A DNA stretch of 64,000 bases from Paraspadella gotoi (lineage: Eukaryota; Animalia; Chaetognatha). Shown in pieces: positions 2,249-39,805 of the stretch. The stretch spans positions 17,090,606 to 17,154,605 of the forward strand of contig CM119267.1 in assembly GCA_051294375.1 (NCBI GenBank), read 5' to 3'. Position 1 is the stretch's first letter. The number at the start of each line of letters is the position of its first letter. Under the pieces are notes generated by a model that saw nothing but the letters and a program-made list of their open reading frames with translations, was not told the DNA's origin and made no database searches. The position numbers and the translations under genes were made by a program.

Positions 2249-2378
2249 AAGTCCACTCTCTGTTACATTCGTTTTGAATCTTATCAGTTATTTCGTTACT
2301 ATGTATTTTTGTTAGCTTTTACAGATTTTGCATTCACTTTTTTGTGGATTAATATGTGGCATTTTGTACGCTCGGCCA

Positions 2379-5597: not shown

Positions 5598-8500
5598 ATG
5601 GAGTTGGATGGCGATACCCCGTTCATCCCATCGGAGACCACGACCAAGTCGGACTCGAATTCTCAAAACCCTGAACTGTCGCTGGAAGCCTCGCACGCTT
5701 CCATGCCCTCTTCGTCCGCAGAAAAATTGGAAGATCTCGATGATGACTGCCCCAGCCAAAAATCTTTGGATGTTCCATCGGTCGCTTCGGTGCATGCTCT
5801 TGGAACTGCCTGTGTTACTTCGGCGGAAGCCCCACCACCGTTAAAGACCTCCGAGAAAAACAGCCCGTTGTCTAAATCAGAGACGACGGAAAACTCGAAC
5901 AAAATAGCCAGATTGGAGTATGGGTTATCGCTTGGAGACAGGTCGGTTGCGTGGAAGGGTCTATAATTTACATTTTGTTGTCGCTTGACTCCTTGTGTCT
6001 CAAGTATTCCTAATATTTTTTACCTCCCAAAGGGTAATGGTCTCCAAAACTCGAGTTGGTTATATCCGCTACTTGGGCCCCACCGAATTCGCTTCCGGTT
6101 TTTGGGTTGGCATCGAACTCGACGAGCCTCGCGGGAAGAACAACGGCGTCGTCAATGGTAAAAAGTACTTCAACTGTCGGGGTCCTTTTTTCGGCCTTTT
6201 CTCACCCGTGGAAAAAGCCGTCAAGGTGGACGCCGCCGGTCGACGAGCCGCGCGAGGAGCGACTAAACCCGTAACCCGTGCTACTCCCGCCCACCATTCT
6301 CGTCTTTGCCGATCTTCATCTCGAGACTCTGTCAACTCGTTTCGTTCCTTCTCCTCCATGTCTTCCATCTGTTCCAACGTTTCCACCGCCTCCCTCTTTA
6401 CGGATTCGACGTCGCCTCTCGCAGCTTCCACGCCCGTCCCTCCCTCGCGTCCTCTTCGCCATGCCGTGTCTTATTCCAATGTGCATTCCTGTCATCATAG
6501 CACCGATACTACTCGAGAAAAGAGAAAGATCAGTCGCCATGGTGACGGAAACGAGGAAGAAAACAACAAGAGAAAACAGACGCCGGGTCTCGCCAAGACT
6601 CCACCGAAGCGAGGCTCGGCCGCCGTGGTTAAACCCTCGACCCCCACACCTTCTCGTCATGCCGTCAAACGGCCGTCCTGCGCCGGCGCGGGGTCATTCG
6701 CTGAAGTTCTGTCCCGATCGAATGTTAAATCGCGCGCCATCGCTTCACCGAAAGACCCCGGCGTCGTTCCGCTCTCACGTTCGTGTTCCTTCGTTCAACC
6801 GCCATCTCCTCGGTCCAAGGGCGGCTTCGATTATCCGCCCGAAGATTACGCCGACGACGCCACCCTTCGGGCGCTGCGAGCGGCGGTTTCCGAAAAAACG
6901 CAGCACATTGATCAACTGTTAATGGAACGTGATCTAGAGCGTAGCGAGGTAGCTAAGGCCGTGGCTGAAGCGGAGGAAAACGGAGTTAAATACGACGCCT
7001 TGAAGGTGGATTGGGAGGAATTCAGGATAGCGAAGCTGGAAGAACTTGAAGTATGGAGGGAAAGGACGGCAGAGTTAATAGAATCGTTAGCGAGTTGTAA
7101 GGAGAAGCTTTCTGACAAGGAACGAGAGTTCGAGGACGCCAGATTCCGGGCCGATGAACTCGAATTGAACATTCAAGAAATTCAAGACGCTTTGAGGTTA
7201 AAAAATGTGGAATCTCTGAGGTTAAACAACGAATTGGAAGAGCAAAGAGCATCCGCAATCGATTCTCAGGAAGAATTAAATTCTCTTAATAAGAAGCTTA
7301 ATATTTTAGAAAAAGAAAACGTCGATCTTAAGAATGAGCTGGAAAGCATATACTCGAATCAGAGGATTTCGGAAGAAAACGAGTGTCTGAAACGCCAACT
7401 TGCCGTAGAAGATACAAAAATTAGAGGGTTCCTTACGGAAAGCGAGGAATGTCAGAAGAAATTAAAAGACCAAACTGATGCAATTTATCGTTTGCAAGCA
7501 GCCCTAAATGAAAAAGATCTGAAAAATATAGAATTGCTGAAAAATTTGGAGGCAGAGGCCAATAATGCTTTGACCCTCCAGAAAGCTTTAGAAAATGAGA
7601 AGATCGTACATAGAGAAGTTCTTACGAAATTAAACGAAGAGACTAAAAAAAACTACTCCTTACAAAAAAATTTTGATATAAACGAGATTAAACTTAATGA
7701 CACTCTTAACTCATTTGATCAACAAACTAAAACAATTTTGACCTTAGAAAAATCTTTGCATGAAAAGGGCTTAAAACTTTCGAATTTGTCCTTAGAACGC
7801 GAGGAGTACGTAAAAAAGTTAAAAAGTCAAACGCAAATTTTACTTCATTTACAAAGCGAATTTGATAGCAAAGACGTGCAATATAATGAGTGCCAAAACA
7901 ATTTAGAAGAACAAATTAAAAAAACTTCCATTCTCCAGACAGCGCTTGATGTTAAAATTGTGGAACATACGGAATACTTAAAGAATACTGAAGTTCTCAA
8001 TGAAAAAATTTCGGAGTTGAAAAAGACTTTAAATGAGAAAGAGTTCGAGTATAACGAGTGCATGAAACGTTTGATGGAACAGACCAAAGTTTTTTCCTCC
8101 ATTCAAACGGCTTTGGATGAAAAAACTAGTGAATTGACCCGCTCTCTAGAAAAAAAAAAAGAAGACGAAGCTGAGTTTAGTCATCAACTAATTCAACTTT
8201 TTTCCCAAAACACACACATTCAGAATTCTCTCGAGGAAAAAGAGAGAACAATCGATGTTCAACTTCGAAAATTACAAGAACAGGATGTTACCCTAATAGC
8301 TCTTAAGAAAAATTTACATGAGCGTAATCATCAGGCGGAGTCATGGCGACTGAAAAATGAAGAGATGAATAAAGATTATGCCACTTTGGAAAATAGATAT
8401 GAATGCTTGGAAAGAAAAATTGAAGATTCAAACAACAACAGAAATTTGCCACAAAAACAAAGAACGACTATTCCTTGGGAAATGGCGGAAAGGAATCAGT

Positions 8501-9336
8501 TACCATGTTCTGATCCGAAATTGGAACCAAATAAAGAAGAAATAGAAAGAAAATATTTTACTGTGAATGAAGAAAAACTGGATTGTGTTAATGGGAGCTT
8601 AATTGAAAAAGACCGACGGTTAGAAACCAGAATGGATTTTTCAAAGGAAGATGAAAACCTTCCTAAGACACCTCAGCTAAACACGAAAAATTGTCAAATA
8701 AATTACTTTGATTCCATGTTTAAACCATATCCTGAAGAGCAAAAGAGCATGAGAGAAAATGTACAAAAATTTGAAATACACGGCGAAACGAGTGGCGATG
8801 CAAAATCGATTCAGATAGAGGATCTCAAACTAGCACCTATGAAATTGATTGAGAGAGTTAACGTGAACGAGCAAGACCAAATAATGGAACTTAAGCGGCG
8901 AATCGCTGAGTTTATCACTCTAGTCAGTTCTGAAAAAAAAATGAAAATAGACTGTGATAATAGCACAAACAGTGATCTATTAAATTTGTTTAAAGATTTT
9001 GAAATACTTCGTCGCTTAAATAAAAATAATTTCAATGAAAATTTTAAAAGCCTCTACCATGAGTTCGAGGCTGTAACCTGCAACCCGCCGTCCTTCAATC
9101 TAGTCAAACACAGCAATCTAGTCGAATCAAATCAAACGGATCCGTTTAATTTTGATATTAACAATTGCAATCCTCTTGAAAATATTAAAAAAGATTACCA
9201 GCTGATTATTCGTAGTGTTGAGTGTCAGCTTGACCGAGGAAAGCAACTTGGATTGCAAATGTCTTCATCGAAAAACAGTTTGGATAATCTACGCGTAAAA
9301 ATCTCAAAAATAAGGCAGCAACTTAATTGTCGCTGA
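5598..9336 (+). CDS. CAP-Gly domain coiled-coil protein, CLIP-170/CLIP-190-like (2 coding exons)
   Basis: CAP-Gly motif GYIRYLGPTEFASGFWVGIELDEPRGKNNG; CLIP-type SEKTQHIDQLLMERDLERSEVAKA; long coiled coil. One intron of about 90 bp at ~5942-6031. Confidence 0.85.
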
Positions 9337-19387: not shown

Positions 19388-19635
19388 GCACATAGGAAGT
19401 TGGAGAAAAACATTTTTTTTATTTCGAGTTGAAAAATTATTAAAGATATAATCAATAATCAATAGGTGAAATGTTTTTTTTGCTTTTTGCCTCGTTCTGA
19501 AATTTTTTTTATTATATTTTGTTTACTTAGACTCAGTCTTAAAAGTTAAACGGAAAATTCTAAATTTAAAATCGAAGTCGCAAAGGAAACCTTGAATTAG
19601 ATTTTAAATATAAAATCGAAAGGGTAAAACTGGCC

Positions 19636-22600
19636 ATGGCTTCAAACTACGGTCCGCGTTCATTGAATCCGGCGCTACGAGCCTCGGCGGAACCCCTAAG
19701 TCTCGAATCGAGGACACGGACGGCGTCGCGCGGAAGCGCTTCCAGCGGCGTTGCTTCCACGCCATCGCGTGTGAGCGGCACGTTGCCAATCCGTATCCCG
19801 GTGGTCTCGCTAACCTCGGATAAAGGAAAGCTAAATGTCGTTGTCTCCAATATCGAACAAGACGGAATCCTACATTTGCAGAATTTAAAGGTTTGTGAGG
19901 AATAAAATTTATAATTGAGTTTATATACATCACGTAATCGCGTTTGCTACTGCCGTCCTTAGTGGGCTCAAGGTTTTAACAACCTCATGGTCAAGCTGAA
20001 TATGGAAATGAAAAAGCGGACAGACAACACAAAGAACGAGAAAAACGGAACGAGTTGGTTGCCGGATAAAGGGTTGTATTGCGTTGCCAAAAGTATCGTG
20101 GACGGTTGTTGGTATCGCGCAGTCGTCTTGGAAGTTCTCGAAACTGGTACTAATATTGGTAAATATGAAACAATGAATTATCATTTAGGCGGAGAGGGTT
20201 ATTGACCAATGACGAAATTTTAAGGGATCATCGTCAAGTACATCGACTTTGGCAACGACGAGATTCTTTCTGCTTCCGACGTTTACCCCATGACGCCATA
20301 TTTTTTCAAATTTCCCGCTCAAGCCATAAGCGTTCGATTACACGGAAGCCAAACAGCCCTTCCAGAAGGCGTAGCCGACTCTATGCTCTTGGAGCTGACG
20401 GATCAAATAATAAATAATCATTTTAAATGTCAAGTCGTCAACAAACGAGATATGGAAAACCGAGTCTTTGTGGAGTTGTTTACGGTTCAAAATGGTTAGT
20501 GAGTTGAAAAAAAAAAAGCTTTAAAATTTTTAAAGTGAAGAATACAAAGTCGACTCTTCACCCCTCTCCTTTCCTGCAGGTAAAGCTTCTCAAAATCTTA
20601 TGGACATCCTCATCGAGAGATACCGCCCTGGATCCTCACGCCCCGGGGGCCGCTCGTCCTCGCACTCGCTCGTCACCCCATCGTCTTCTCAATTGTCCAA
20701 CCGTGTCGCCAGCGAACTTCCTTTTAAGCGAATGCGCTTGGAGGATGGTAAAAAGTATGACGTTCTCCTTGTTTACTGCCTGAGCCCCGGTGCGTTTTGG
20801 TGCCAACTAGAGCAAGAGCGGGATCGTCTGGAGCAGTTGATGGATTATCTGCAGCGATTATACCGCTCTAACCGATTGCGCCCGCTGGGTTGTTGGCCGC
20901 CCGATGCGAGGCAAGCCATTGCTGCTCAGTTTACCCACGACAACGCTTGGTATCGAGGGGTGGTGCTTGGATTCGCTGACAACAAAGCAGAAGTAGGTTG
21001 AATCAGTTAATCAGTTAATTTTGCTTTGGCTGAGATTGAAAGAGAGAAGTTAATTTTTCCCTCGTTCGTTTTGTTATTTTTGTTTTTTAGGACACAATGA
21101 AAAATAACGTGGCGTTACTGTCTCGTGCTGATTTTGTCCCTTTAAAATTGTTTCTGAGCCAAATTAATTGATTATTACTTTTGGTAATATGTGCGATATA
21201 CACTACTGGACATTACTGTGTCTGACCATAACCGATGACCATCAACAAAAAAGCTAACTAGATCAAAAATAGTAAAAAAGATGAAGCAATATAGCTCGAA
21301 ACGCTTACAAAATTTTAGACCATTGCTTTTATAAATGCAAAAAAAATATTATTAATATTAAAACAAAATTTTAACGATAACTTAATAGTTAACCGAAACC
21401 AAGATGAATATTTTTTACCCATCATTTCTTTAATTTATATGAATCATATGTTTGTAATTAGTCAATTAATCTAAATAACAATATGACAAATTCATTTTTA
21501 ATTTTTTTATTAATGGGAAGTTTTTACTGCTTACTCCCCTTGTGTTTAATTATCTAATATTTTAGAAGTATTTCCAAAAACCTTATATAATTACTATATT
21601 TTCACTTTTTTTTCAATTCTTTCAAACAAAAACAACATCATAAAAACATTTTAAATTAATAAAAAAAAATTGATTGAATGATTTTGGAAAAAAAATATTT
21701 TGAAACTTGAGAATAATGGATTTTGAGTTAGGAAAAAAACTTTGCAATTCTAAAAAATCAGCCTCTAGCCTTTCGATTTTTCTAGAGGCTGATTTTTTTA
21801 TTTTTTTTATATTTTGATTTTCTATGCAAAACCATTATTCTCAATGAGCATAGGTCGGAGGAAATTTTTTTCCAAACAATTTGAAAAAATTTCAGCTTTT
21901 TTAATTAGGCTTTTTTTGGGGAAATAAATAAATCAATTATTATTACGATGGGTACATCTGAAAGTGATATGTCTCTAAATGACAAAAAAATTTTTTTCAA
22001 GTTTTATTTTAAAATTTAAGTATTGTATCAATAGAAATAAGTGAGATACTCCCGCTTTGCCAAAATTTTTATTTAACAAAGATTTGTACTGCGTAGTTTG
22101 AAAAAGTTATTTTTTTAAATAACTTTTGAAAGAAAAGAGCTAGCAAGATGGATGTGGTATCAAATTAAAGCCCTAATCATGGGACACCTTTTCTAAAAAA
22201 GTTTTATTAAATTAAATCCATAAATCTTTACACAGCTTTTGTTTAAATCAGAGTTAAAAGTATAACAGTTTTTTGCTTTAAAAATTTTAATGAAGGCATA
22301 TGAATTTTTTTTATTTTTCTTTTGTAATTTGAAAAGGAAAGACTGAATTACATTTTGATTATTATTAAATTTTCTTTATTCCATAAAACTGCTTATTATT
22401 TTTAAGTTAAAGTAAAAAATAAGCAAAAATTTATATTGTAGCTTGATAAAATGGTCTTTTTAAATATCAAAAATGATAAATACAAAAATGTTTTCAGCTT
22501 GATATAAACAGTCTGGACATCTACCTTCTTGTCTGTGGAAAAAAAATCGGCATTTTTTATTATCTTTAACTGCAAACTAAAAGCTTGATACACTGCTTGT

Positions 22601-25600
22601 TTATCATAATAAAGTTTTAAAAAATTATATAGCTGGCAATATATTTGACAAAGCAAGACATCATTGTGTTAAATTGTATTGATAATTTTTTTTAAATATA
22701 GCAAGGAATTTAATTCTATTATTTATCATCCATTTTAATTAAGAAAAAATATTTCTCGTAATTGCCCATTAGAAAGGGTTCATTGACCGACTTAATGATC
22801 GAATTTTTTAGATATCTTTACTGCCCCCATTTTACAAGATATAAAAGGTCATGGTTGTCATGTCAGTAAGTCCAGATTATCTGTACCCTTTATACAACCT
22901 GCATTCTGAATTTTCTTTTTTTCCTTTTCAAATGTATTAAATAAAAAAAATTATTTGAGAGAACAATCGGCGTGGAGGATGCCATTGGTAAGCCTTAGTT
23001 ACCCCACTTCCCGATCGAATTTTTAAATGAGGTTTTTTTTCCATCTATTTGAGACATAACACTAACTATTGGTACTATTATTTTTTTTTATTTTTTTTTA
23101 TTACAATTCTAGGAATAAATATAAATAAGTAACTTTTTAAAAAAATTTATCATCTTTCACCCTATATTCGGTCATATCTAAAAAACAAAAAAAGATTTTG
23201 CATTGATATTTTGGATATCGACATATGAAACTATAACGTTTCAAAAAATAAAAAGAAATATAGTAATATTGAACAGTGAATTTTTTTTATGCACGGAACA
23301 GTAACGTTACGCCATTTTTCATTGTGTCTTAGGTTCTTTTTGTCGATTATGGCAATACGGAGTTGTTGGGAGAAGAGAGATGTGCCGAACTTCCTCATGA
23401 CCTCCTCAACATGGAAGCCTTCGCATTTCCCTGTTCGCTCGACAAAATTGAGCCTATTTTCGAGGATGATTGGGGCAGCGAAGCTACCCTTGTTCTTGAC
23501 ACTCTTTCGCAACAGAAGGGTGAGCTTATTTCCGTCTTATAAATATTATATACCTACCATTATCTACGTAATAATATATAATAATAATTACGAAATAAAT
23601 TTTATTTATTTTAGTCTAACTTTTCAGGACTTTCTGCAATCGTGGTCGGTACCAATTCCGCCAATCATTTAAAAGTAGATCTCATCGACACGAATTCTCC
23701 TTCTCGGGAACGAAATATCGCCAGAGAGTTAGTCCTCTCCAAGATGGTGAAAGGCTCCTTCGACGATGCTCTCCAGGATGGTCCCCAAATTGCCCGCCCC
23801 GCAAAATCAAATTCTTCCCCGGAAATCGTTGAACCACTGGCTGAGGTCCCAACCGATGCTTCTTTCCCGCCCGCTAAGGATGTTTCCGGCCAGACAGCCG
23901 AAGTGAGTTTGGCCTGGGCAGTCAACCCCGGCGAATTCTACTTACATTTAACTGATCAAAACGAAGAATTGGAGAGGATCGAAGACCGCCTGGCAAACGA
24001 GTACGCCGATCTGGGACCCCGAGATCGCCTGCTTCCCTCCGCTTCCGCGGGCACCGTCTGCGTTGCGCGGTTCACCGAGGATGATGCATATTACAGGGCT
24101 TGTGTGATCGAGGTCTTGAATGAAAAATGCCTCGATCCACTCGATCTCAAGACGAGCATCCGTTTCGTTGACTTCGGCAACGGAGATGTCGTTCCTCGCT
24201 CTCAACTTAAGTCGGTTCGTCTTAGAGCGAAGAATTGATTAGAAATACGTAATTACTTATAGGCAGTCGAATACTAATGTTTACGTATTTTCCTCGTTTC
24301 AGCTCCATCCCGCTTTGTTGGAACAACCTCCCATGGCGCTGAGGTGTCATTTAAAAGGAATCCGACCCAGCGGCCTCAACGAAGACTGGAATTCGGCGGC
24401 GACGACCTTCATGGATCGTCTCTGCGAGAATGAAAAAGTCACGTGCATTTTCGGAAAAAAAGGAGAAGCTGCCGACTACGAAGTCGAACTTTGCGTCAAC
24501 GGAAAAAACGTCGCTTGGGAATTGTGCAACGCCGGCTACGGATTCGAAGATAAGCCTAAGAACGCAGGGGCTTTGGCGGCGCCGGTTCCAACGCCGGTTC
24601 CGGCGCCAGCGGAAAGAGTCGCCATTTCGACGGAAGAGCCCTCGACATTCCCGGCGCTGAAGGAATCTTCACCGTTGGACGTCAATCACAATCCATCGCT
24701 TGTGATTCCTTTCCTCCGTCCATTCGAGGGCTTGAAGAAGGGATTCGTCACCTTTTACAACTCCCCCGATTCTTTTTACCTCCAATTGTGCGAGATGGAG
24801 AATGAGATGTTTTACCTGACGCGCGATCTGAAGAACTTTTATTCGCAGTCGACCGGAAGAATCTCGAAGGTCCAAGGAGGCGGCTACGTCTGCGCCAAGT
24901 GGAACAAGGATGGCTCTTGGTACCGCGCGATCGTCGAAAGCGAAGACGAAGACTATGTCCGTGCATTTTTTCTCGACTATGGAAATTCCGATAAGATACA
25001 CAAAGATGACGTTCGACCTTTAGCCCCTCAATTCTTTGGGCGCGCGCAGGCTTATCACTGCCGCTTGTTTAAACCAGACGGCGCCATGTGGACTCTTGGC
25101 AACGATACATCGAGTCTCTTCGAGTATTGTGAATTTCAAGTTACTTTCAAAGACCCGTCATGTCTCACCACGCCGTTTACCGTCAGTCTTTACCGAAAGG
25201 GTGAGGACTTGTCCTCCCTGTTGTCTTCCACACCAGAAAACAAATCGACGCCGATCAAAGAAGGACTCAGCTCGTCTAAACTCAACGCGGAGGCTCAAAT
25301 TTTTTCGCCGAGTCGATCGCGCGAGTCCAAACACGTTATTGCCTTGGACGACGAATCGAGCGTGGCAGGATCTCAATCCGTCGAAATCTTGACTCCCGCT
25401 CTGGTCTTAGAATCACAGTCATCAGCAGCTAAATCTCAATCGTCATCCCTGAAATTTCACCTTGTACCTTTGGACTCTCGGCCTCCGGAATCTCGATTGA
25501 TTTCTGACGTCCCTCCGCCCAAAAAGCTGAATCAATATCCCGACGGTCCCGATCTAACGGGGACTTCGACTATTGTCGAATTGGTTTGGCCGGAATCTCC

Positions 25601-28600
25601 TTTAGAGTTTTACGTCCAGCTGAAATCGCGCCAAGAAGAGCTCCAGGAATTGGGGCAAAGAATCGGTTCGTTGTATTCCTCGTTCGGTCCCGACGATCAC
25701 AAGTTCGCTTCCGCCCGCGTTCGTTCACTCTGCGTAGCCAAGTACGCAGTCGACGGAGGTTGGTACCGCGCCGAAGTCCTTGAGCCGCCTGCCGATATGA
25801 ACTGGGAGCGGCTACTCGTTCAATTCGTCGATTACGGCAACTCAGCGGAAGTTGATAAGGCTGACCTCAAGCGCGTACACCCTTCTTTCAGAGGAGTTGT
25901 TCCGGGGGTCGTTAGGTGCACTTTGAAGGGCATTCGGCCACTCAGCGGCCAAGACAATTGGGATAAGAGAGTTGTTGGCGAAATGGAAAGAATTTGTAGC
26001 GATAATTCGCTCGAATGTCGATTCGTATCCTGGTCAGATAGTCCTGGCTTTCGTGGAACGTACTTGGTTGAAATTGACGTTGGCGGAAAGGATTTGGTGA
26101 CGGAAATCTGCAAAAGTGGACTTGGGGTTTCGGTCGACAACGATAAGAGAAACGAACCTGCTTTGGTGTCAGCAGGCGTTGCAGTGAATCCTCCCAAGTC
26201 AGCATCGCCTCATATGGAATCGTTCTCCGAATCTCCCCCAGTGTCTGTCCCTTGTCATCCTATTCCCCAAGATCCGCGACCCAGCCTCATAACCCACTTT
26301 AATTCCATCGACTCTTTCTTCATTCAACTCAACGATATGGAGGACGTCGTGGTGAATCTGACTAATAACATATTCGAATTATATTCTTCTTGCGGTGATG
26401 CTTACAAACTTAGTCGTACTTGCCCCGGTGCTTTTGTCTGCGCCAAGTGGTCCGATGATGGTTGGTACCGATCCTTAGTCAAATCGGTCGATGGCGATCG
26501 TTGTCACGTCCTCTTCGTCGACTACGGCAACGATGACGATGTTGCTGTCACAGACATACGTCGGCTGGACGAAAGATGGGCATTGACCCCCGCCCTGGCG
26601 TATCACTGCTGCCTCGGAAAACCCGATTCGACTTCCTGGCTGCCGGAAGTGGATCGAGCGGCAAAGAGAATGTTGCTCGAGAAGGTGGTAACTGTGCAAT
26701 TTTCTGGTGGCGAAGATGCTAATAAAGTGGAATCGCCCGTGACAGTTGCCTTGGCTCTTGATGGCAAAGATGTCGCAACACTTCTAGTTCGACCAGCTTC
26801 TCCGGTCGACGACTTGCCTCCTCCCGATCCGGCGCGTATCTCTCCCCAGGCGCCTCCCAATGCAGCACACATTAACGAATCCTCGATAATAGATAGCGCC
26901 TCTAATTCGCTGACCGCAGGTAAAACTTCTTTGTCATCGAGCAAAGACTACGCATACGGAAAATCGTCTACGCCTGCAAAGGGAACTTGTGACGAGATTA
27001 TTTCGGGCCCAACGCCGTCGATGCTTCCCCCTACACTCCCCGTCGTGGACATTGAACCTCCATGCGGTTTTTCCGACTCTTATCCATCTCGGGGATCATC
27101 TAGGCGCGGGTCCGTCTCCTCGCGCCCCGGATCGCCGGAGAGAATGAGCCGGCAACCGGAGCGACCAAGAACGCCTTTACATCTAAAAAGTTCTGCGAAG
27201 ACTGGCTCAATGATCGAGTTGGTAATGCATGTGAACGCGATATCCCAAGCCAATGCCGCTGCGGCTGCCGCGGTCGCTCGACCACTCTTCACCGCCTCGC
27301 CGATTCCCAAGCAACGTTCTCGGGTCTTGATTATGCATCAAGAAGGCATCGAAAAAGTATGGTTTCAACTAGTTGAAAACGATTCTGTCGGCCTAAAGCT
27401 CATGGAAAAGTTGAATTCAGTGTAAGATAATAAAAATCATAGTATAACCTAATTGTGCTGAGATTACTTATTAATAAATAATATTTAGTTACTCTGACTG
27501 CGAATCGGGCACAGGACCTGCAGTTTTGACTAACCCAAAATCAGAAGATTGCTGCATTGCCAAGTCTTCTTCAGATAGTTGCTGGTACCGAGCAATCGTC
27601 GAGGGTGTGCTTGTTGAAATTGGAGCAGTCCAAGTTCGTTACGTGGATTTTGGGAACAAAGGTAAGTTAAGAATTCGTTGAAAAATAAAAAGATCAATAA
27701 GCCTTATGATTTTTCAAAATTTTATTAATACCATAATTACTCATTTTTCTGCGGTTCTTCAGACACGATTCCCCTTTCTCATCTACGAATCGTCCTTCCC
27801 GAGCTCACGACTGAACCTTGCCTTGTCTTCGGTCCATTGTCCGTCTTTACTCCAGGGACGAAACCCGCGCTGAATTGTGATTTGAAATTCAAGGCGATTT
27901 TGGAGCAAGAGCGTCCCTTCGATATCGAAGTTACGGAAGACGGACGAGGCGTTCGTCTCTTTACCGTTCCCGAAGGAAAAGAAGTCGCTTTGGAAGAAGG
28001 CTTGGTGGAATCACGGCTGGAAGGCCAGTGTTATAAAACGTTGTTTTATCTTTCTGTCTGATATTTTTCTTTGTTATAATAAAGAACAATTTTTAAAATA
28101 GAGTGCAAACAAAGAAAAGCGTACACTGTGCAATATTTAACGGTAAACACTGAATTCGTTTGTTACTATTCTGCTGGACCGTCTCCCAACACTTTTTACG
28201 TTCAAGCTTCAGGTACAATGAGCCAATGGGACTAAACTCTGAATGTCAGTGAAATTTTTTTAAAAATTTATCAGTCACAGTAATTTGAATTCTTTTTTTA
28301 AAGGTTGCGAGAACGATTTGAATCAAATCATGAAAACCATCAGCCAAGCTGTTTCTCAGTTCCCCAAGTTACTAAACGTAGAGGAAGGTTTTCCCTGCGT
28401 CGCTAAATTTTCGGAAGACAATAACTGGTATAGTATTATTAAGTTTTTGTATTTGTGTTGCGAGAAAAGATACGGATATGAAATCATTTTCTATGGCTAT
28501 ATGCTTTAAAGGTATCGCGCTGAAGTCCTTCGGTGCCTGCCCAACGGTCTCATCCGAGTCCGTTTTGTCGACTACGGAAACTCTGAAGACGTCCCGAATG

Positions 28601-29002
28601 ACTTCACGAGGTTACGAGACATACCCGAATCAATTCTCAAGCCCCCAGTTAACAGCACGCTTTGCCGTGCAGCGGGATTGAGAAGCAAAGAAGATGTAGG
28701 CTGGTCAGAGGAGGTAAAGAAGAAAAATATTCCGAATAGGAAGGTTTTGATATATCGATTTAGGATATATTTGGTAAACGCAATTCTTATCCTGTCAGGC
28801 GAAGAAAGACTTTTCGAACCTCATTAATAATGTAGAGCTTCACCTCTTCGTTGAGAACTCAACACCAGTGACGCGTCGCAGTACGGCGCACCCGTTCATG
28901 TACGACGTATATATCGGCGACTGCAAGGGATCCATCAATATGTCACAGAAGTTTTTAGATAAGGGTCACGCCATTAAGGACCCCAATACAAAACTCGCTT
29001 AA
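19636..29002 (+). CDS. Multi-Tudor domain protein (Tudor/TDRD6/TDRD15-like, about 8 extended Tudor domains)
   Basis: Eight repeats of the pattern CxAK...DxxWYRA...V.(F/Y)VD(Y/F)GN with SN-like flanks (SPxxFYxQ). A role in the piRNA/germ-granule pathway is inferred from the family. Confidence 0.92.
21091..23328. mobile_element. Non-autonomous TIR DNA transposon, copy 2 (at the 3' splice site of a Tudor intron)
   Basis: Same TIRs and orientation as copy 1; flanked by the 4-bp direct repeat TTAG (21087-21090 and 23329-23332). Confidence 0.93.
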
Positions 29003-29538: not shown

Positions 29539-30590
29539 ATGAATTCCTCGGCAGTGGACTTCTTCCCTTCTCTACAAACTATGAGTCTGTCTTGCGTGGA
29601 GCAAGAACAAATATGCGTCCGAAGTTGGTTCCTCAACTGGTCATCATGGCAACGCAGGTAAATGTCATTTCGAAAAGGATGGAGAAATATATCTAGTTTA
29701 TTCAATAGTCACACAGTATAGATATCTCGTATTAATTCCTCTTAACCATACTTTTTATCGGTTTAGCAAATTTATGGAGGAGTTGTTGTGCAAGGCGGTT
29801 CCCGCTGATTCCGCGGATTTGTTACTCGATTCAATCGGCGGACTCACGCTACAAGGGTGAGTTGATTGGTGTCGGTTGGGAAACCTTTGGCCTACATTAC
29901 GTGAAATGGACTTCTAGTGAAAGGCAGTGGAAGTTAACGCGCTTGATTATATTTTATTGTCATCATTTACGTATTTAGTGTGGTTTTTTCTATAACTTAT
30001 TCGTTAGTAACAGTACGAAAATTGGTTGTATTTTTATTTCAGAAACGATCGCGGGCCCTCCCTGTTTCAATGTCAGTTGAAACTCTTTCGTCAATGGTTT
30101 GATAACTGGCAAGATAAAGAGCGAAGTCAATTTCTCGGGAGACTTCAAGTGAGTTATTCTTAAGTATTTGCCAGAACTCTTCACTTAAATACATATATAA
30201 AGGAAAAAAATTATTGATTTCTTCGAAGGGATTGTTTTTTTGGAACTTTTGCCTCGTCATCAAAGAGGAGTACCTCACCTTTCGCTTTCATTTCCTTTTT
30301 TTCCCAAAATCCCGCGGTGATAAAACGGGTTTTTATCAACGGGCTGAGAGTAAAACTGATTACCGAAATTGACTCACGGCATTCGATTTTAACTCGAGAC
30401 CTTCGGTTTCGAATGATTGTAACGGGTTTTTAATTTGAACCCGTTACAAGCCGAGATCTTAAGATGACTTTTACGTCTTCATTATCTCCGATATTTTTTA
30501 CCGTTTTTTGTTTTTTTTTTTCAGGAGATTGATTCCGAATTTGTGTCCCAGTTCCAACGAGCCGTCGACAGCCGAACGTCAACGACCTGA
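29539..30590 (+). CDS. C14orf119: C14orf119 homolog (DUF4508), 4 exons
   Basis: Spliced: CVRSWFLNWSSWQRSKFMEELLCKAVP...GPSLFQCQLKLFRQWFDNWQDKERSQFLGRLQEIDSEFV. Missed by the ORF track because the exons are short. Confidence 0.88.
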
Positions 30591-30811
30591 TTTCGATTAC
30601 AACGTCCGTTAGTGATTCTCACCCGTGACTAAAGACCGAAATTCTCATTAAACGAAAGATACTCGTGCTGACGTCGACGTAATTTTTGCACTCGATTCAA
30701 TACGGCGATTTTATTTATGACTCGTCAACAACTTTTATTCCTCCCATGCATGATCTCAATCTTAAATGAGAAAAAAAAAGAAGAAGGAAACTCGGAAATA
30801 AGTAATGAATT

Positions 30812-32256
30812 ATGAAAAGATGTTCGATGTCGGAAAAGGGAAAATCAAATTCTGGTGGCGTTGTTGAAGCGAAACGAGAGGCGATCGGTTTCTCAGTCGG
30901 CGTTTTGCTGACCTCTGCGATTCTGATCATCAATAAATACGTTCTGACGTCGCTCGGGTTTCAGGTAATTCGGGGATTAACATTAGGGAACGCGCGGAGA
31001 TGTTAATTCGTTTTGCGACACGAAATTGATTTAAAGCGACTCGTGTTTTTTTTTAAATTTATTCGATGTTTTTTCGACAACATACATTCGCTCATTATTT
31101 TTGAGAGTTCGACCGATTGAATCATTTTGAACTTCCTTCCTTCATTTCCCAAAACCCCCTCCCGTTCCCTCCTATCAGTTTCCAACTATTTTTCTGGGAT
31201 GGCAGACGTTTGCGCAATTTTTTATCCTAAAAATCGATGGAGCTATTTTAAACGGAGCAAAAACGAACCTCGCGAAAAAATGGCGTCAGGTAAAAAGTGA
31301 TACTGAATTGTAAGTTGTATGTTGATATTAGCATTGATATTTCTCTTGTTCCTTTCTCCAACTTCCCTACGCATTTTTCTCAGCTCCTTCACTTTTCTCC
31401 CTCTATCTTCCTCCACCTCGTCGCCATCTACGCCGGGTCCCGCGCCCTCTCCCGTCTCGACCTTCATTTATTCCTCGTCCTGCAGAACTTTCGACTCGTC
31501 CTGCGCTCGTCACTTCTCATCCTTGCGGCCCCGCTTCTCAACGCAGAACAACGTTGGCGCTATTGGCCGGAGTTGGGTAGCGCTCTACTTCTATTTGTCA
31601 TCGCGGCAGCCGGTTACTCCGTTGGAGAATTGGACGCCGACTCCTACGACGGAGAAGCTTACCAATGGTGCGGCTTGCACGCGGCAGCCCTCGCCGCCGG
31701 CGACGCCTTCTCGACTCTTTTCGTGGATGAACGACAGGAAGCGGCGCTTACCGGCGCGGAACGCGCCCTCCTCCTCAACGGCGTCGGATTTTTATTCCTC
31801 AGCTTCGGCGCTTTCATCACGGGCCAAGTTTACGCCGCCAACTTGTTTCCTCACTGGCGTTTGTACCGATTCTACCTTGCCTGTTTTCTCAGCGGCTGCT
31901 TGAGCGGATTGTCCAACTCTTTAGAGTTTCGACTCAACGACGGCAAATCCACTGATAGCGACGCGATGTCTCCGCTTGGGGATAAACCAACGCAGGAGAC
32001 GAAGAGGTCGTGGAATGATCCCGTCTATCCCGATTGGCAAGTCATGGCGAAGCCTATCGTCTCAATGTTCTCATTTGTTTTCTTGTGCTCGTCCGCGTCG
32101 CGGTCTTCGCCGCGGTTTCTTCTGCTTTGTTTCGTCTCCTTTTCCGCCGAGTGTTTTTACCTCAAAACCTATTTTGGCTTTCTCAAATATTTTCCCAAAA
32201 TCCTGCGGAGTTTGGAACAAGCGTGGGCGCGAAAAAAAGGGTTGATTCTCGCCTGA
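30812..32256 (+). CDS. TMEM241: TMEM241 (nucleotide-sugar transporter family)
   Basis: INKYVLTSLGFQ|FPTIFLGWQT and AIYAGSRALSRL motifs; multiple transmembrane segments. Start could be 30827. Confidence 0.85.
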
Positions 32257-32385
32257 AAATCATCGGGAGTTGAGGACCAATAATGATAAATTAGTTTTTT
32301 TTTTTTTCGATCTGGTCTATTGGCTAAAAAAAACCTTTTCTTCTCGCTTAAATTTTTTTTTTTCCTCAGTCTTTTTAAAGAGAAA

Positions 32386-33303
32386 ATGAAAAAACATTCA
32401 ACGACCACATCGCTCCCCAACGGAAAATCCCGAGAAGCGAAGGAAAAACGAAAAAACTCGGTTTTGCTCGGCTACGATTGGGCGGCGGCCATCGTTGACG
32501 ATTCCCGGGACGTCGGGTCGCGCGCCTATTTGGACGAGCGGGACGAAGACTTGGGGTGAGGTGGAAGGTTATAAAAAACTAAGTAAACTAATTTGGTCTC
32601 ACCGGTCGCTTTAACCTTTCGTCTCAGCGAAATTCGCGCCTTTCGTCAAAGCCACGCCTCCTCCTGCGTCGGCGCATCGACCGTCGATGGCATCGATCGC
32701 GAAATGCGCGACTTGGGTCCAGTGGCCGATTTCAAAACAACGGACGTTGAACCTCGTCCCCGTCCTACTCCCGTTGACAATCACATCTGCGTCTTTCCTT
32801 TCGAAATCTCGGAGAGGCTTTTCGCTCGGCCATTGCAGACTCTTGGAAAAAAGGTTGGTGGAATTTAAGAGAGTCTGTGGTGTAATCTCGTATTTGTTTT
32901 CGCTGTTTTTAAAACAGAAATTTTGATTTGGGTTAATTTTTTAAATTTTTATTGAGAGATTTTTTTTTCCACCTAGGATTCTTCATCCGCCTGCGCCGTG
33001 TGCTCCCGTCCCCGCCCGACTCCTTCCATCGAACCCTCCTTCGTGAAAGTGAGTCTTTCCCGCGGAAGAGCCGCTCCACCTTACATTCCACGACCCCATC
33101 GCCGAAACTCTTTCGATCCTTCCGACTCTCTCTCCCTCGCCGCACACCTTCTTCAAGGATGGCGCCCGCGGGGATGCGCCGACGCCATGCCCGTCACAAA
33201 GAGTCTGGCTTTGAGGAGGAACTTGAGAAAGCGAGAGGAGGAGCAAGAGAATAATGACGGTAGAAAAGTGAGGAGCTCGAAGAGAAGAGCGGAAAACTTT
33301 TAA
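32386..33303 (+). CDS. MIIP: Migration and invasion inhibitory protein homolog
   Basis: LLGYDWAAAIVD, HICVFPFEISERLFARPL and PHRRNSFDPSDSLSLAAHLLQGW match the conserved MIIP blocks; 3 exons. Confidence 0.82.
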
Positions 33304-33473
33304 GTCGACAGATTCTATTTGTATGCAATTGTTCGCGTTATCGTTTCATTTTCAACTTCGAATCGTTGACTGTTAATTGTTTTTCTCCCGATTTACTTTT
33401 TCATCATACGTTTTTACACCATCTTTAGCGCGATTCGCTTTCGAAAATCGCTCAACTTTATATCTAAATTAAT

Positions 33474-36400
33474 ATGGACGCTTTGGCCAATTATTCCGGC
33501 GAAAGCGACGATGGAGAGGATTTGGAAAGAAGTTCCAAACATTCGGATTCGAAATCGACCGCTGGAGGTTAGTTTGCGCAGTGGGGAAGGCGAATGAAGA
33601 AAATTGCGAAATTTACAAGACATTTTATTGTATAGGTCGTTCGAGTAACAACAAATCCCCCCCGAAGGCAGAGTCGAAACGAAGGTCGTCGTCTTCATCG
33701 TCGGAATCGAACAGGTAGAAGTTATTCCTCTTTTATCGGGGTTTTTTTTTCGTCGAATCTTACTTTTTTAGTTTTTATATTGTGCATATTTTTAGCCTTT
33801 CGTGTGTGTTCTCGATAAAATTTGCATCTTTTCTTGGGTAAAACCAACGATCGTAAGCTTAATCAAATTATAATCAAGTCAAAACCAAATACGAAATTTC
33901 ATTATTAAACAAGTTTACTTATGTACAAAGACTCACATTCTGCTATGATTTCCCCTTTCTTCGAAATTCGCATTTGTAAAAAAAACCACACATCCCTTGT
34001 AACTCGGTCTCCCGCTGGCCTCGCCACTTCCGCCATCCGACACAAAATAGAGAAAAAAGAAAATATAGGTGACGGCGGAGCCACGATCTCTCTCGCCCTC
34101 GACATCGACGAAAGAAGAGTTGGCGTTAAGGAGAACGCGCCCCCCTTCGAAACGAAGCCGACCGGAGATCCCGGCGCCGACGCGTGCCACGCCCCTTCCG
34201 CGTGGCACCGCACTGCCAAGAGTCAGGCCGTCAGAGCCTATTTGGTTTTTTTCTTTCTTTCGTAAAGCGAACCCTTATTTAAAAAAAAAAACTATTATCC
34301 CGTTTTATATATATATGTACAGTTATAAAATTTCACGGTATATGAAATTACGTCTTTTATACTGAGAACATTTGTCGGGTGGGTGACTCGATATAGTTTT
34401 TTCCCACGATTCTTTGCTACGACCGTTTTTTTCTTTCTCGTTTCTAAAAGAGAATTCGACCGATGTCCCTCCCCCTTTCCCCCCCCCATCCACCCCCCTT
34501 TGTAGTGGCAGCAGCGATGAATCCGACGAACCGGACGACGAGGAAACCGCCGACGTCAAAGCCGGAGGGAAACCCCAAGTCCCCGACGAGAGCGGAGGCG
34601 ACAGATCCGATATGGAGCTCGACGAAGAAAACGACGACGACGAACTCGACGGGATGAGAAATCCCGCGGATGTCTCCTCCGAAGGGATGAAGAGCGGAGA
34701 GAGAACGAGGGAGAAAAGGAGAGAAGGTTAGATAAGCACTGGACATTGGACAAGGAAAGGCCGAGACCATCTCGGAAAATTCAATATTTTTTGTCGTTGT
34801 TTTAGGACATTCGAGACACCAAAGTTCTAGAGATTCGGAGAGAAAGCGGCTTTCCAGTAGCGGACAGGACAGTAAAGAGCCTCGACGACGTGAGAGGTAA
34901 GCTTTGGACCGGAATAATTTTTATACCCGTTCTTGCCAAAAACCGTTTCATGAAGTGATTAAACTTTTTTTTTTTGGGGGGGGGGAGAGTCAAGCAGAAA
35001 AAAACTTTGATTTAACAATCCTGCGAATTGTGACATATTTGTTTTTCAAGTGAACTAATCGAGCTTCTGTTTTCTCCCACTGAAACACAAAGTAACCTCC
35101 TATAGGCGCGACGCTAACGACGACGGCCACGACGCCGATCGCGACTCTGGGCGCCGATCTGGGAGCCACCGACGACACAAACGTAGCGATCACGGAAGGC
35201 GGCGTGATCACGGCCGATCTCATCGCAGTAAACATGGACACCGCCGATCGAGGTGAGAGAACGCGAAATGAATAATAATTTCTAAACTTGGTTTCTACTT
35301 TCTGAAAGAAAAAAATATTTAAGTGGAAGTTCATATATTCAATATTTGTCTTACACTATAATTTAACTGTGCATTTCTAACTTTTTAAAATTAAATGCGG
35401 AGAATAATTAGTTATAAAAATTCGCAAAATTACTTAAATTCAATTCAATTATTCATTCGTCAATGCATTGACGGACCTTTTCTTAAAAAATAAATTAACT
35501 CGTGCTAATGTTTAAAAAAAAAAACACGTTTTAGGTCTCGGTCTCGTTCGCGCGACCGACGACACGGAAGTCACCGCCGTCACGACGACGACGGTCGGAG
35601 ACGCGACGAACGACGACATAGAAGCGACAGAAAAAGGAGGCGGTCGAGAGAGAGGAGGAGGAGGTCGTATTCCAGGTGGGAGGGGAAGTATTCTTTCCTT
35701 TTTAAGTACGGTCGAATTTGTCCCGAGATTTGTTAACAACTGCTAAAGAATTTCTTATCGTTCGCTGAAAGGTATTTGAGGGTAAGTAGCCGAGTGACCG
35801 GTAGTCGGAATGAATAGAAAATGGCCAATCTTGTTTGTAGTGGTCTAAGTTTTTTTTTCGAGTCTTCAATTTCGACGTCTGAGTCAAATTAAAACCTCTG
35901 AAATTTTTATAGTCTCGACAGTCGTTCGTTTATACACGAGAACTAACTCGCTTTATTAAAATAAAATGTCAAAATCTTCCAACCTGATGAAAAAATATTC
36001 TTCAACGAAAATGAGCGATTTTAATCCTCCTCGTCGATTGTCGACGCGGCTTTCGACAAAGGGTCCTTTTGCCGTTCCTAATCATCTAGTCGATCACAAC
36101 TACGCCAAGAGACCGCCATTTCCGAGTTGTGCACGGATTTTGGCCAAATTTCGTGTTGCTCTTTCGACCGCCAGAGTTAAACTTTGGTCTTTGCATGAGC
36201 GGAGACGGAACGAAAAGAAATCCTCGTCGGCGTCCGGGCTTTTACGCTTCAGCTCTCGTCCCAGCCTCCGGTATCGCCGGAGGGACGAGGACACTCTTAA
36301 ATACAACGTTAGCCGCCGGACAATCTACGACGGTCGCGACAAGTTTGTCTGCCGCACCATGAACGAAACTCAAATCCGTCTCAGTCGTCGCATGATCCAT

Positions 36401-39400
36401 GAAAATCGTCTCTACTCGTCTCAGTCGCGAATTCGTCCCGTTCCTTCCCGAGTCGCCAAACTTTCGCGTCCCGTTTCTTGCGCGTCGCTTTCCTCTCGTC
36501 CCCAAATCCAGTCTTCTTTGAAGTCCGCCTCTCGTCCTCTGAGTTTACCGCCTTTGGCGACGGTCGCTCCGCCCCCGCGCCCTTCAAACGATTACGCCGA
36601 CGACGACTACTACGGATTTTGCTTTTTTTGTGGGTTAACCTTCTGCGACGAGGCGGCCTTCGACCGCCATGTCGATAGCCGATGTTTCCAATTTCGGCCA
36701 GAGGAGCTGAACAAAACGACGGAGATGTCGGGCATTTCGTGGGACGAAGCCTCGAGCTACGACGGAATAGTCGAACGACGTTCCCACCGAAGCCAGAATT
36801 CAAATGCCGACGTCGTCGGCGAGCTCCTCAGCAGCGGGTCTTCGACGGAAGTCGTCACTATCAACTCTGGAAAGTGGCGTCGAATTTCCGAAGGTAGCAT
36901 CTCAACGGATTCCGACTACCAAACGGCAACTCCTTCGCCTGTTTCTGCCCCCTCCGATCCGGTCGAAGCTCGTTTCAATTTCGAACCAATTCTTAAAACT
37001 GCAAGTGGTTTCACTGCAATCGACAAAACCTCGGAGTCAGAAGCTTTTGTCCCTGTTGAATGCGCGAATTTTTGAAGTTTTGTACCCTATCAGCATAAAT
37101 CTGGTTGATTGTAGTTTTAGTGACGATTTGAAACAGATGAAATTGTTTTTAGCGTTTTTATGAATATTTTGAAATATATTTTAAAGTAAAAAGTTTGTTT
37201 TTGTAATTTCATAGTTAAATTTTGGAAGACTGAGTCAGAGTTTGTTGACTGAGATTACCCAGTAGTCGTTTTTTCCGCGCGGTTTGGAAGAAAAATTGTT
37301 TAGGCTCATTCTAAGATATAACAGTTTAAAATATTTTTGGAAGTACTTATTTGTAGTATAATAATGCTTCTGGCAAGGTGTACATTGCTTTTTTTGTTTA
37401 AACTGTTTTGAAGTAAGCAGGTAAAGTTAGGGGAAGTTATTGTTAGTTTAGTTTTTATAAAAACTTATTTTTATCAAAAAATTTAACGATATTGTTAGAT
37501 AAGTTAATCATGTAAGATTTTTGAATTCATAGTAAAAGGGTCAAAATGGTAAAAAATACCTAAATTATAAACATAAAATTCTTTTAAAATTATGTCTTAT
37601 TAAATAGGTTTAATGAAAGATGAAAAGCTTAAAATTAGGTCAATTGAACCAAACTTTGTCAATAGGGTGGGTCAGAAGTTTGATTTGGGAACCTTCCCAA
37701 ATGAAACTTCATACATTTCTGAGAAAGCTAATTAATTTTTTAATATTTATAGATAGGAAATGTCAAAAAAAAAATTTTAAATTTTTTTTTAAAAGCAGAT
37801 TCAGATAGCTTATTAAAAGTTGTCTACACAAAGTATAATTCTTTTTTCAATATTTTGATGATAAGTGGGTCAAAATTGGGAAAAACTGAAAAAATCATCA
37901 TCATCATCCGATGATTTTAATAGTTTTTACTAATTTTTAATAATAAAACATCAAAATTTTAAAAAGTTGTAATTACATTTTTTGTTTAACATTTTGAGCT
38001 CTATCAGAATCAATTAAAAAAACTTACAATATCTAAAAAATATTTTTGACATTATATAGCAATATAATAATTTTAATTAACGAATTACTCATGGTTCGGA
38101 ACATTTTTGCAAAAAAATATTTTAACACAATAACTAATACTAATAATGGATTCGTTTAATGCTGTTCCCATTAAAATTGTCAGAATTGTCATTTTCAGAA
38201 ACGATCACGGAAAAATATTAATAAGTATGGCTTTTATCGTATGCAATACAATGCGCGCGCATAAAAACGACTAAATGTTTTGAAAACGCCTTTTAGTTGC
38301 TTAAGAATTCGTTTCATTTTATATAAAAGTAAAATGTCAGAAAAAACTTTTACCACTCATTTTATTATTGTATCTCAAATCGTTCAGACAGAGTAGGACG
38401 TTAAGTTTTGTCTTGATAAAGGGTCCCACCCCTGTAATTTTGTTCACTCGATATTTCTCGCTTTAAACAGGTCCGGTTCATCGTCGTACTCCAGATCGCG
38501 TTCTCGAGATAGAGACCACATCTACAAGACTGGGGTGGAAAAGAGAGAAGCTAAAGTCAAGAAGCTAGGAATGGTCGTTGCGGATCCCGTTACTGGGGAA
38601 GGTGCGTTCTAAATTTATTGTCATAAGTTATTAATTAATATTGATAATCTTTTCGTTCGGTTTGTTTTTTAGGTGGCGAGGTTTCGGCTAATAATTCGGC
38701 CGGTAAGGTTCGAGCGTTTTAGCTTTTTTAAATACAGTTTCTCCGTCAATTTTTTAAATATTTTTGAAACATAAGTATTGGCGAAAAAACTTGTCATTAA
38801 AGTGTGATGAATTTCTTTATAACCCAGTTAGCAAAGTGCTTTTATTAATATCTAGGAGTCGGACCTATTGCAGCGGCTAAAGCGGCCGCGGCAGCCGCTG
38901 CCGCTGCCCGGGTAAATCTCGCTTTAAAACAAAACCAAGCTGCTGCCGCAGCTGCTGCTGTTTCACCCCCACCAGCTGCGCCTTCGGCTCAGGGGCCTGT
39001 TGTTCCTCTCATGTCTCTAGACACCTCCTCTGATGGCGGTGAGACATACCTTTTGTCTAATCTCACTTGGTTAATCTGTACCAATCCCGAATTACATCAA
39101 ACCCAGGTAACAAGGACGGGACGCCCATGTGCGAAGATATTGCTTCCGCTGTTGCGGCGGCGACGGCTAAAGCAGCTTCTTTGGCGCAGCAGGCGGCTGC
39201 GCTTAATCCTCAAGCGGCGATGGAAGCTGCGATGAAGGAGATGCACGAGAAAGTCCAAGCGGAAACTGGGATCGCCGTTCCGAAGTTTTATAACCCCACC
39301 GCCGTTAATCCCATGAAATACGCCGAGCAGGTACGCCTGGCGGGCCTTTTTCATATTCAGTTATGCAGTCTTTTTTTATAGCTCTAGTTCAACATTTTTC

Positions 39401-39805
39401 TCAATTCAATTTAAAAGGTTCAAAAGCGAAAGTTACTCTGGAGCAAAAAGGACAAGGAGGAGCCTAAAACAACGTGCCTGGGTACATGGAAAGGCGCGCA
39501 GTTCGACGACACGAAGCAATCGGAGAAGTTCCGCAAATTGATGGGCATGGGAAACCTGGCGGATGACAAGAGCGCGGAGGGTGGGGCCTCTTCGTCTGGC
39601 GAGGAAGTCAAGAAGAAGCAGGAAGAGCTGTATAAGAATTTAGAGCGGCAGGTAGCTCTCGTTTTATTTTCTTTAAAATTTTCAATCTTTTCATCTTTAA
39701 ATTTATAATTTTTAAAAAAAAATTTAGTATGAACTCTCGCGGATGCAGACACACACGGGCAAAGGCATCGGACTTGGATTCAATTCAGCTTTTCCTCCAC
39801 CGTAG
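33474..39805 (+). CDS. RSRC2: Arginine/serine-rich coiled-coil protein 2 (RS region plus SMAP domain)
   Basis: RS/RD-rich exons, then ETGIAVPKFYNPTAVNPMKYAEQVQKRKLLW, KFRKLMG, LERQYELSRMQTHTGKGIGLGF. Phase-compatible splice 35675/38471 across a 2.8-kb intron. Confidence 0.9.
35966..37075 (+). CDS. Intronless 369-aa ORF with one C-x2-C-x12-H-x4-C zinc finger, nested in an RSRC2 intron
   Basis: ATG in aaaATG context, exon-like GC content, CFFCGLTFCDEAAFDRHVDSRC and a DHNY motif. Confidence 0.7.
   Translation: MSKSSNLMKKYSSTKMSDFNPPRRLSTRLSTKGPFAVPNHLVDHNYAKRPPFPSCARILAKFRVALSTARVKLWSLHERRRNEKKSSSASGLLRFSSRPSLRYRRRDEDTLKYNVSRRTIYDGRDKFVCRTMNETQIRLSRRMIHENRLYSSQSRIRPVPSRVAKLSRPVSCASLSSRPQIQSSLKSASRPLSLPPLATVAPPPRPSNDYADDDYYGFCFFCGLTFCDEAAFDRHVDSRCFQFRPEELNKTTEMSGISWDEASSYDGIVERRSHRSQNSNADVVGELLSSGSSTEVVTINSGKWRRISEGSISTDSDYQTATPSPVSAPSDPVEARFNFEPILKTASGFTAIDKTSESEAFVPVECANF

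Follow-up and report, generated by a model that had tools for sequence, protein, structure and literature searches.

This work concerns a 64,000-nucleotide (nt) window of the Paraspadella gotoi genome (assembly GCA_051294375.1, contig CM119267.1, positions 17,090,606 to 17,154,605 of the forward strand; all coordinates below are those of the window) and, in particular, a 369-amino-acid (aa) intronless open reading frame (ORF) which lies within an intron of the gene RSRC2, on the strand of its host. This nested ORF is a separate, conserved and transcribed gene of an unnamed protein family. As regards its expression, we give about an even chance to the proposal that it is expressed from the RSRC2 transcription unit, in which case the RSRC2 donor at 35676 would be skipped, the nested ORF crossed and the transcript ended inside the intron, in competition with full-length RSRC2. 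It is the unnamed protein family that represents the newer part of these findings; same-strand intronless nesting and promoter-sharing gene pairs are already well known.

The nested ORF is a conserved gene

The host gene and the nested ORF are arranged as follows.

33474 to 39805, plus strand: host gene RSRC2, with a 550-codon coding sequence; ten introns confirmed by RNA, the first intron predicted from sequence
33568 to 33635, plus strand: first intron of RSRC2, a sequence prediction
35535 to 35675, plus strand: RSRC2 exon directly upstream of the nested gene, defined by RNA contigs
35676 to 38470, plus strand: GT-AG intron of RSRC2, 2,795 nt, with the nested gene inside, defined by an RNA contig joint
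35966 to 37075, plus strand: nested intronless ORF of 369 aa, mostly predicted to be disordered, from the ORF call, homologs and a structure model

This arrangement, proposed in an earlier note made from the letters of the DNA alone, is borne out by the ORF call and by the RNA contig joint across the intron. The host was identified through its exon 39109-39330, which returned 14 protein matches (7 of the 14 named RSRC2; E values of 1e-7 to 9e-6), and the exon that follows carries a Pfam SMAP domain (E value of 1.2e-8). The large intron is preceded by 257 RSRC2 codons, representing the acidic and arginine/serine-rich (RS-rich) part of the protein, and followed by the SMAP domain; introns here usually measure 68 to 282 nt.

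The nested ORF extends from an ATG at 35966, which an in-frame stop precedes by two codons, to a TGA at 37075, and its entire coding sequence is contained in a spliced intron on the host strand, as is characteristic of a same-strand nested gene. None of 1,000 composition-matched Markov sequences produced an ORF as long (the longest being 329 aa), and the G+C content of the ORF is 0.52 versus 0.25 to 0.38 elsewhere in the intron.

A search of 5.8 billion proteins returned two matches among 5,061 candidates, namely P0001 (E value of 3e-20) and P0002 (1e-18), and a profile built from these and the nested ORF, when compared with 1.84 billion representatives, returned two matches of which one, P0003 (4e-39), was new. 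The homology check suggested in the earlier note thus yielded three homologs, each of which is an unnamed ENA protein forming a single-member cluster; a further profile search with 7,991 candidates recovered the same two proteins only. Fused forms longer than 893 aa were within reach of the search against the 1.84 billion representatives only. All three homologs align with the nested ORF in one frame and without a break, and none carries an RSRC2-like N terminus. Two scans of JGI metagenome contigs gave no relatives among 547 and 598 pattern matches, and the best ESM Atlas scores (0.88 and 0.87) pointed to small zinc-finger clusters, which serve as leads only. Identity to the homologs by block amounts to 22 of 37 aligned pairs at aa 101 to 120, 42 of 60 in the finger at aa 221 to 240, 37 of 56 at aa 241 to 260 and 26 of 54 at aa 281 to 300. 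Two conserved blocks seen in the alignment are unexplained.

36293 to 36331, plus strand: conserved block, aa 110 to 122
36716 to 36742, plus strand: conserved block after the finger, aa 251 to 259

That the nested ORF might instead be part of a transposon, or a chance frame, appears scarcely credible. The 3' part of the same intron does consist of high-copy repeat DNA, and in a test of codon preference the frame of the ORF did not stand out (0.086 bits per codon, the other frames giving 0.067, 0.084 and as much as 0.086). Against this stand the three homologs with their conserved blocks, the absence of a second copy of the ORF from the 64-kb window, and the single RNA contig over the ORF, which leaves no sign of paralogous transcripts. 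Neither a Pfam nor a PHROGs family, including those of transposons and viruses, was found in the ORF at a significant E value, and the spacing of its zinc finger differs from that of a gag knuckle (C-x2-C-x4-H-x4-C); the transposon origin that the earlier note had named as fatal to its proposal is thereby contradicted. No long terminal repeats were found around the ORF and no tandem repeats, and the N-terminal block of P0001 and P0002 was not found elsewhere in the window.

RNA from the host exon into the intron

The RNA evidence consists of assembled contigs from one run (X1) of one study. Of three public runs, none of them recorded as RNA, one contained the stretch; at 85%, nothing usable for the nested ORF was obtained from X2 and X3 (a 24-nt match only), which is uninformative given the divergence. 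The contigs were assembled with 31-letter words, are strandless and drop short tips such as a leader, and their joints at GT-AG introns demonstrate spliced RNA. One of them spans the nested gene.

35648 to 37352, strand not shown by the contigs: ungapped 1,705-nt X1 contig with 0 mismatches, comprising 28 nt of host exon, the unspliced donor, the AG at 35912, the whole nested ORF and 277 nt of 3' sequence

Transcription, on which the earlier note had made its proposal depend, is apparent from this contig, which covers the whole ORF and bridges 35912, unspliced, with 265 and 1,440 letters on its two sides. Because it starts inside the host exon, the underlying reads would have held words across the unspliced donor, given the 31-letter assembly. 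Other contigs are spliced, joining across 35253-35534 and across 35676-38470. The exon by itself accounts for the bin 35477-35553, leaving the intron end at 35477-35532 without cover; depth is 0 at 37479-37632, and there is no locus-specific cover past about 37400. The two uncovered stretches, together with the spliced contigs across both, argue against a derivation from DNA or from general pre-mRNA.

The earlier note had envisaged two routes by which the nested mRNA might arise, either from the excised intron or in competition with full-length RSRC2. The former, in which trans-splicing and 3' end formation would free an mRNA from the excised RSRC2 intron and one transcript would give both products, is in our judgment very improbable. 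The gene does lie wholly in the intron, with a candidate acceptor, and the contig data are compatible with such a minor route; the contig nevertheless starts with upstream exon sequence still joined to the intron across the donor, a junction that is lost once the intron is excised, and the route is disfavoured for this reason. It also counts against it that 3' cleavage inside an intron normally competes with splicing of that intron. The latter route, competition with full-length RSRC2, agrees with RNA that runs from the end of the host exon into the intron and has no locus-specific cover beyond about 37400.

It is expression from the RSRC2 transcription unit that we favour. Transcription would start at the RSRC2 promoter, and a minority of transcripts would leave the donor at 35676 unused, cross the nested ORF and end inside the intron, presumably near 37350 to 37480. 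Since an unused donor coupled with an end in the intron excludes full-length RSRC2 on that molecule, each molecule would specify either full-length RSRC2 or a short RSRC2 together with the nested gene. Unspliced read-through from the RSRC2 exon adds 20 codons and meets a stop at 35734, so that the by-product would be a 277-aa, RS-rich RSRC2 devoid of the SMAP domain.

35734 to 35736, plus strand: TAA closing the RSRC2 read-through, from the sequence; a 277-aa short RSRC2 would result

Contig depths were 261.2 upstream, 230.9 in the contig spliced onward and 22.2 over the nested gene. With one figure per contig, the latter two sum (230.9 + 22.2 = 253) in the manner of a branch of about 9%, which we regard as a weak hint.

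The main rival explanation, unlikely in our estimation yet ahead of the other alternatives, is that of an ordinary nested gene with its own promoter in or upstream of the exon 35535-35675, the unspliced 5' region of which, whether an untranslated region (UTR) or an outron, overlaps the host exon and its donor. As contigs cannot show where a transcript starts, the 1,705-nt contig fits this explanation equally. Internal promoters are described for C. elegans operons (PMC3687364), and in Drosophila same-strand single-exon nested genes are reported to be common and nested genes to show no greater co-expression with their hosts than gene pairs drawn at random (PMC3814207). Such a promoter would, however, have to initiate at or before 35648, in transcribed host coding sequence or in the short upstream intron, and the summing of the contig depths like a branch of the host transcript speaks, weakly, against it.

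Proposed release of the nested ORF from the RSRC2 transcript

If the nested gene is indeed expressed from the RSRC2 transcription unit, its ORF would presumably be released as an mRNA of its own, for which its own 5' end would be needed. Four sequence elements, three of them ahead of the ORF's candidate acceptor, bear on this step; the read-through stop is given above and the others are as follows.

35782 to 35787, plus strand: strong donor-like G|GTAAGT, not seen spliced, which could pair with the AG at 35912 as a 131-nt cis intron
35809 to 35814, plus strand: AATGAA, a possible polyadenylation [poly(A)] signal about 100 nt before the AG at 35912, at chance level
35905 to 35912, plus strand: candidate acceptor, a T-rich tract and AG, from the sequence

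Given that model, release would probably occur via trans-splicing of a leader at or near the AG at 35912, the alternative being a dicistronic RNA. Leader trans-splicing is regarded as the likeliest means of release on account of the operon-like packing of the neighbourhood (see below), the 176-nt gap between the read-through stop and the AG at 35912, and the 53 nt after that AG (35913-35965), which contain no ATG; two ATGs occur upstream of it. The 176-nt gap is similar to nematode intercistronic spacing, which in Trichinella spiralis (T. spiralis) is given as 74 to 213 nt, counted from the poly(A) site (PMC7668243). As had been pointed out in the earlier note, splicing of the RSRC2 donor to this AG does not create an in-frame alternative exon, since it adds 11 codons and then meets a stop.

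The same note had called 35912 the ORF's own acceptor. The AG itself is present, as a candidate acceptor; its score is undistinguished and the donor at 35782 could pair with it. This unused strong donor, 131 nt upstream, means that the AG is not strictly unpaired. The AG at 35912 could be an ordinary cis acceptor for the donor at 35782, the 131-nt intron being removed in some transcripts to give a UTR-spliced or dicistronic message without a leader, an explanation that we consider improbable. In its favour, the score of GGTAAGT at 35782, 7.8, falls among those of held-out true donors (6.3 to 12.8); GGTRAGT has nine plus-strand occurrences in the window and none that is unused in the 1,351 nt of the 11 confirmed short introns; and 131 nt is a usual intron size here. 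In contrast, the contig retains 35782-35912 and the listed joints include none of this kind, such that the spliced form would be at most minor in run X1. Separately, a splice from the donor at 35782 to 38471 would give RSRC2 a premature stop, as in a poison-type isoform; the listed joints do not include it.

Several findings weigh against expression from the RSRC2 transcription unit or against release by a leader. With regard to the RNA, the status of run X1 as RNA is a guess of the search tool; the 1,705-nt contig reaches 28 letters into the exon before the donor at 35676, which is below the 31-letter bridging bar; a contig that spans two genes demonstrates no single transcript; and, apart from a 20-nt stray match, this contig alone accounts for the depth over 35708-37247. 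The contig ends, at 37352, in sequence that recurs in other transcripts, and the RNA may therefore have its true 3' end elsewhere. No joint or loose end at 35912/35913 is among those listed; as contigs drop short tips, a leader at 35913 is neither shown nor excluded by them. With regard to the signals, the AG at 35912 scores 2.5, second of 17 AGs in 35700-35965 and exceeded by at least 12 of the 136 AGs of the intron, on a matrix, built from 13 RNA-confirmed acceptors, that is too weak for a ranking of sites (held-out true sites score -4.5 to 6.7). Operons resolved by a spliced leader have a poly(A) site about 50 to 200 nt ahead of the acceptor, with a U-rich (Ur) element. The AATGAA at 35809 has the position expected of an intercistronic signal; AATAAA or AATGAA nevertheless appeared in 2,524 of 10,000 resamples, which places it at chance level, and there is no AATAAA after the nested ORF and no Ur-like TAYYTT before the AG at 35912. 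Finally, the gene starting at 30827 differs from its neighbours: several ATGs precede its start, and the 214 nt that follow the preceding stop (30613-30826) show no obvious pyrimidine-rich AG, which suggests that leaders may not be a general feature in this region.

Predicted properties of the nested protein

The following features were recognised in the nested protein.

36092 to 36103, plus strand: DHNY, aa 43 to 46, a motif match to the HCF-1-binding consensus
36128 to 36232, plus strand: predicted helix, aa 55 to 89, confident in the AlphaFold model, with a hydrophobic 3-4 spacing common to P0001 and P0002
36620 to 36685, plus strand: zinc finger C-x2-C-x12-H-x4-C, aa 219 to 240, with ligands invariant in 4 of 4 sequences

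The single CCHC-type finger noticed earlier is thus upheld by its invariant ligands. All four sequences have the C-x2-C-x12-H-x3/4-(H/C) spacing of a classical (C2H2-fold) finger, and the weak domain matches, none at its curated cut-off, all tend toward classical zinc fingers, among them zf-C2H2_jaz in P0003 (E value of 8e-4, below the cut-off). The 6 best of 11 PDB sequence matches are likewise zinc-finger proteins (best E value of 0.002). Outside the helix, the protein is predicted to be disordered, the AlphaFold model having a mean predicted local distance difference test score (pLDDT) of 48.9 and a predicted template modelling score (pTM) of 0.21. A Foldseek search with this model gave no match at an E value of 0.001 or better (best, 3.2), and a VIA structure comparison gave a best Z score of 4.3, to generic helices. 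The nested protein is predicted to be a mostly disordered nuclear adaptor whose N-terminal half is basic and in which DHNY would be succeeded by a coiled-coil-like helix and one C2HC finger of classical fold.

The fit of DHNY to the (D/E)HxY consensus, also reported in the earlier note, holds as a motif match, the only respect in which HCF-1 binding is indicated. A motif of this type arose in 383 of 20,000 shuffles. Of the two full-length homologs, P0001 retains it and P0002 has lost it, P0003 lacking the region, and this loss speaks against an HCF-1-related function. The motif is, moreover, described as not always predictive of HCF-1 binding (PMC13631171). The nested protein would probably recruit HCF-1-type chromatin cofactors.

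Joined to the expression proposal, this would give a clade-conserved gene-within-intron operon, in which, depending on use of the RSRC2 donor, a transcript would yield either full-length RSRC2 or a leader-spliced mRNA that encodes an HCF-1-recruiting zinc-finger protein; a truncated, RS-only RSRC2 would arise as a by-product. We consider this extended proposal rather doubtful, well short of the simpler one on which it builds. Were it true, the state of the splicing machinery would set the level of a chromatin regulator, and if the nesting proved to be shared throughout the clade, the coupling would seem to have been selected and not to be incidental. Expression from the RSRC2 transcription unit, if confirmed, would itself provide a compact natural test of cis-splicing versus intronic 3' end formation versus trans-splicing on one pre-mRNA, in which the choice also truncates an RS-domain protein. 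If the nested gene is an ordinary one, the findings still add a zinc-finger family without a name, and a gene that could be overlooked by annotation pipelines or fused by them with RSRC2.

Genomic neighbourhood

On the plus strand, the gene order is a DUF4508 gene, a membrane-protein gene, MIIP, RSRC2 and a TBC-domain gene; the membrane protein is presumably TMEM241-like, and the TBC-domain gene we take to be TBCK. Along this order the gaps, from a stop to the next ATG or candidate acceptor, are 214, 113, 125 and 272 nt, an operon-like packing. A 2,809-nt contig with cis-spliced introns runs across the first two gaps, between the DUF4508, membrane-protein and MIIP genes; overlapping UTRs would assemble into the same gap-bridging contig. 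Cis-spliced dicistronic intermediates have been described for a Brugia operon (PMC1657053). Among the window ORFs of at least 75 aa, Pfam matches were obtained for 18 of the 125 on the plus strand and for none of the 108 on the minus strand, which renders the same-strand position of the nested gene less surprising than the earlier note had claimed; splice-motif counts showed no plus bias in several 4-kb bins. The RSRC2 neighbourhood is operon-like in its packing, and the genome is compact.

A number of further observations were made in the window. The spliced contig that bridges the first two of these gaps (30525-33428, covering three consecutive genes) stops aligning exactly at the AG at 33427-33428 before RSRC2, leaving seven unaligned letters, for which a poly(A) tail at a trans-splice acceptor is one possibility; such a tail is a feature of operons of the spliced leader 1 (SL1) type. 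All recognised genes, about ten, lie on the plus strand as a long co-directional cluster, unless minus-strand genes with short exons were missed. The interval 19570-28830 is taken up by a large multi-Tudor gene whose exons are very long (1,060 codons in one frame), and a CAP-Gly and coiled-coil protein is encoded at 5989-9336 in a single open frame of 1,115 codons. Rfam gave 0 matches in the window. Within RSRC2, the intron 33715-34505 has a contig depth of 57.9 in the bin 33736-34202 without a confirmed exon, is GC-rich near 33990-34240 and holds a 114-codon ATG ORF, possibly representing an alternative or poison exon. The repeat DNA of the large intron is located as follows.

37649 to 38437, strand not given: high-copy repeat DNA in the 3' part of the RSRC2 intron, outside the ORF, with contig depth in the thousands and many loose ends

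It is present in many transcripts (depth of 2,000 to 5,800), has common boundaries near 37649, 38178 and 38436, and possibly consists of non-autonomous transposons.

Comparison with known systems

A literature search, which missed most subscription papers, found no account of a gene nested in RSRC2. At the protein level, the closest parallel drawn here is with THAP1, whose HCF-1-binding motif is situated in a disordered linker directly before a long helix or coiled coil (PMC11811203, PMC13631171). DHNY in the nested protein is predicted to occupy the same position, whereas the nested protein has a single C2HC classical-type finger after the helix and lacks a THAP domain, no Pfam match to which was found in the ORF or in P0001 to P0003.

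Most nested genes are antisense to their hosts, as the earlier note had stated; in Drosophila this applies to 71.27%, with about 29% on the same strand, of which 72.53% are single-exon (PMC3814207), and FlyBase, which lists 159 dicistronic pairs, does not treat same-strand nesting as exceptional (PMC4528330). The present gene belongs to the same-strand class and likewise has a single exon. Drosophila nested genes mostly have their own expression pattern, whereas the RNA of the present gene appears continuous with a host exon.

Morton and Blumenthal (2011) reportedly described C. elegans "alternative operons", in which 3' end formation and spliced leader 2 (SL2) trans-splicing take place inside an intron, such that one pre-mRNA gives one gene or two; these are said to split one gene in two, whereas here an unrelated, complete ORF lies in the intron and the host resumes after it. 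Their study is cited for long-spaced operons in PMC4138322. The C. elegans genes unc-17 and cha-1 are in an operon together and share exons (PMC11488851). Like them, RSRC2 and the nested gene are a same-strand pair, one that would share exon sequence. The unc-17 gene lies in the first cha-1 intron, the non-coding first exon being shared by cis-splicing; a cis-splice from the RSRC2 donor to 35912, in contrast, leaves a stop before the nested ORF and was not seen.

In humans, RBM12 is an intronless coding sequence in an intron of CPNE1. This pair and more than 20 others share promoters, and choice between the products is proposed to involve polyadenylation and splicing (PMC2568002). The arrangement proposed here is similar in that two unrelated proteins would derive from one promoter. 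Sharing of that type relies on non-coding 5' exons cis-spliced to the inner gene, whereas the RSRC2 exons ahead of the branch are coding and no cis joint to 35913 is listed. With 257 host codons preceding the branch, the host protein would be truncated and the downstream ORF would depend on release or re-initiation.

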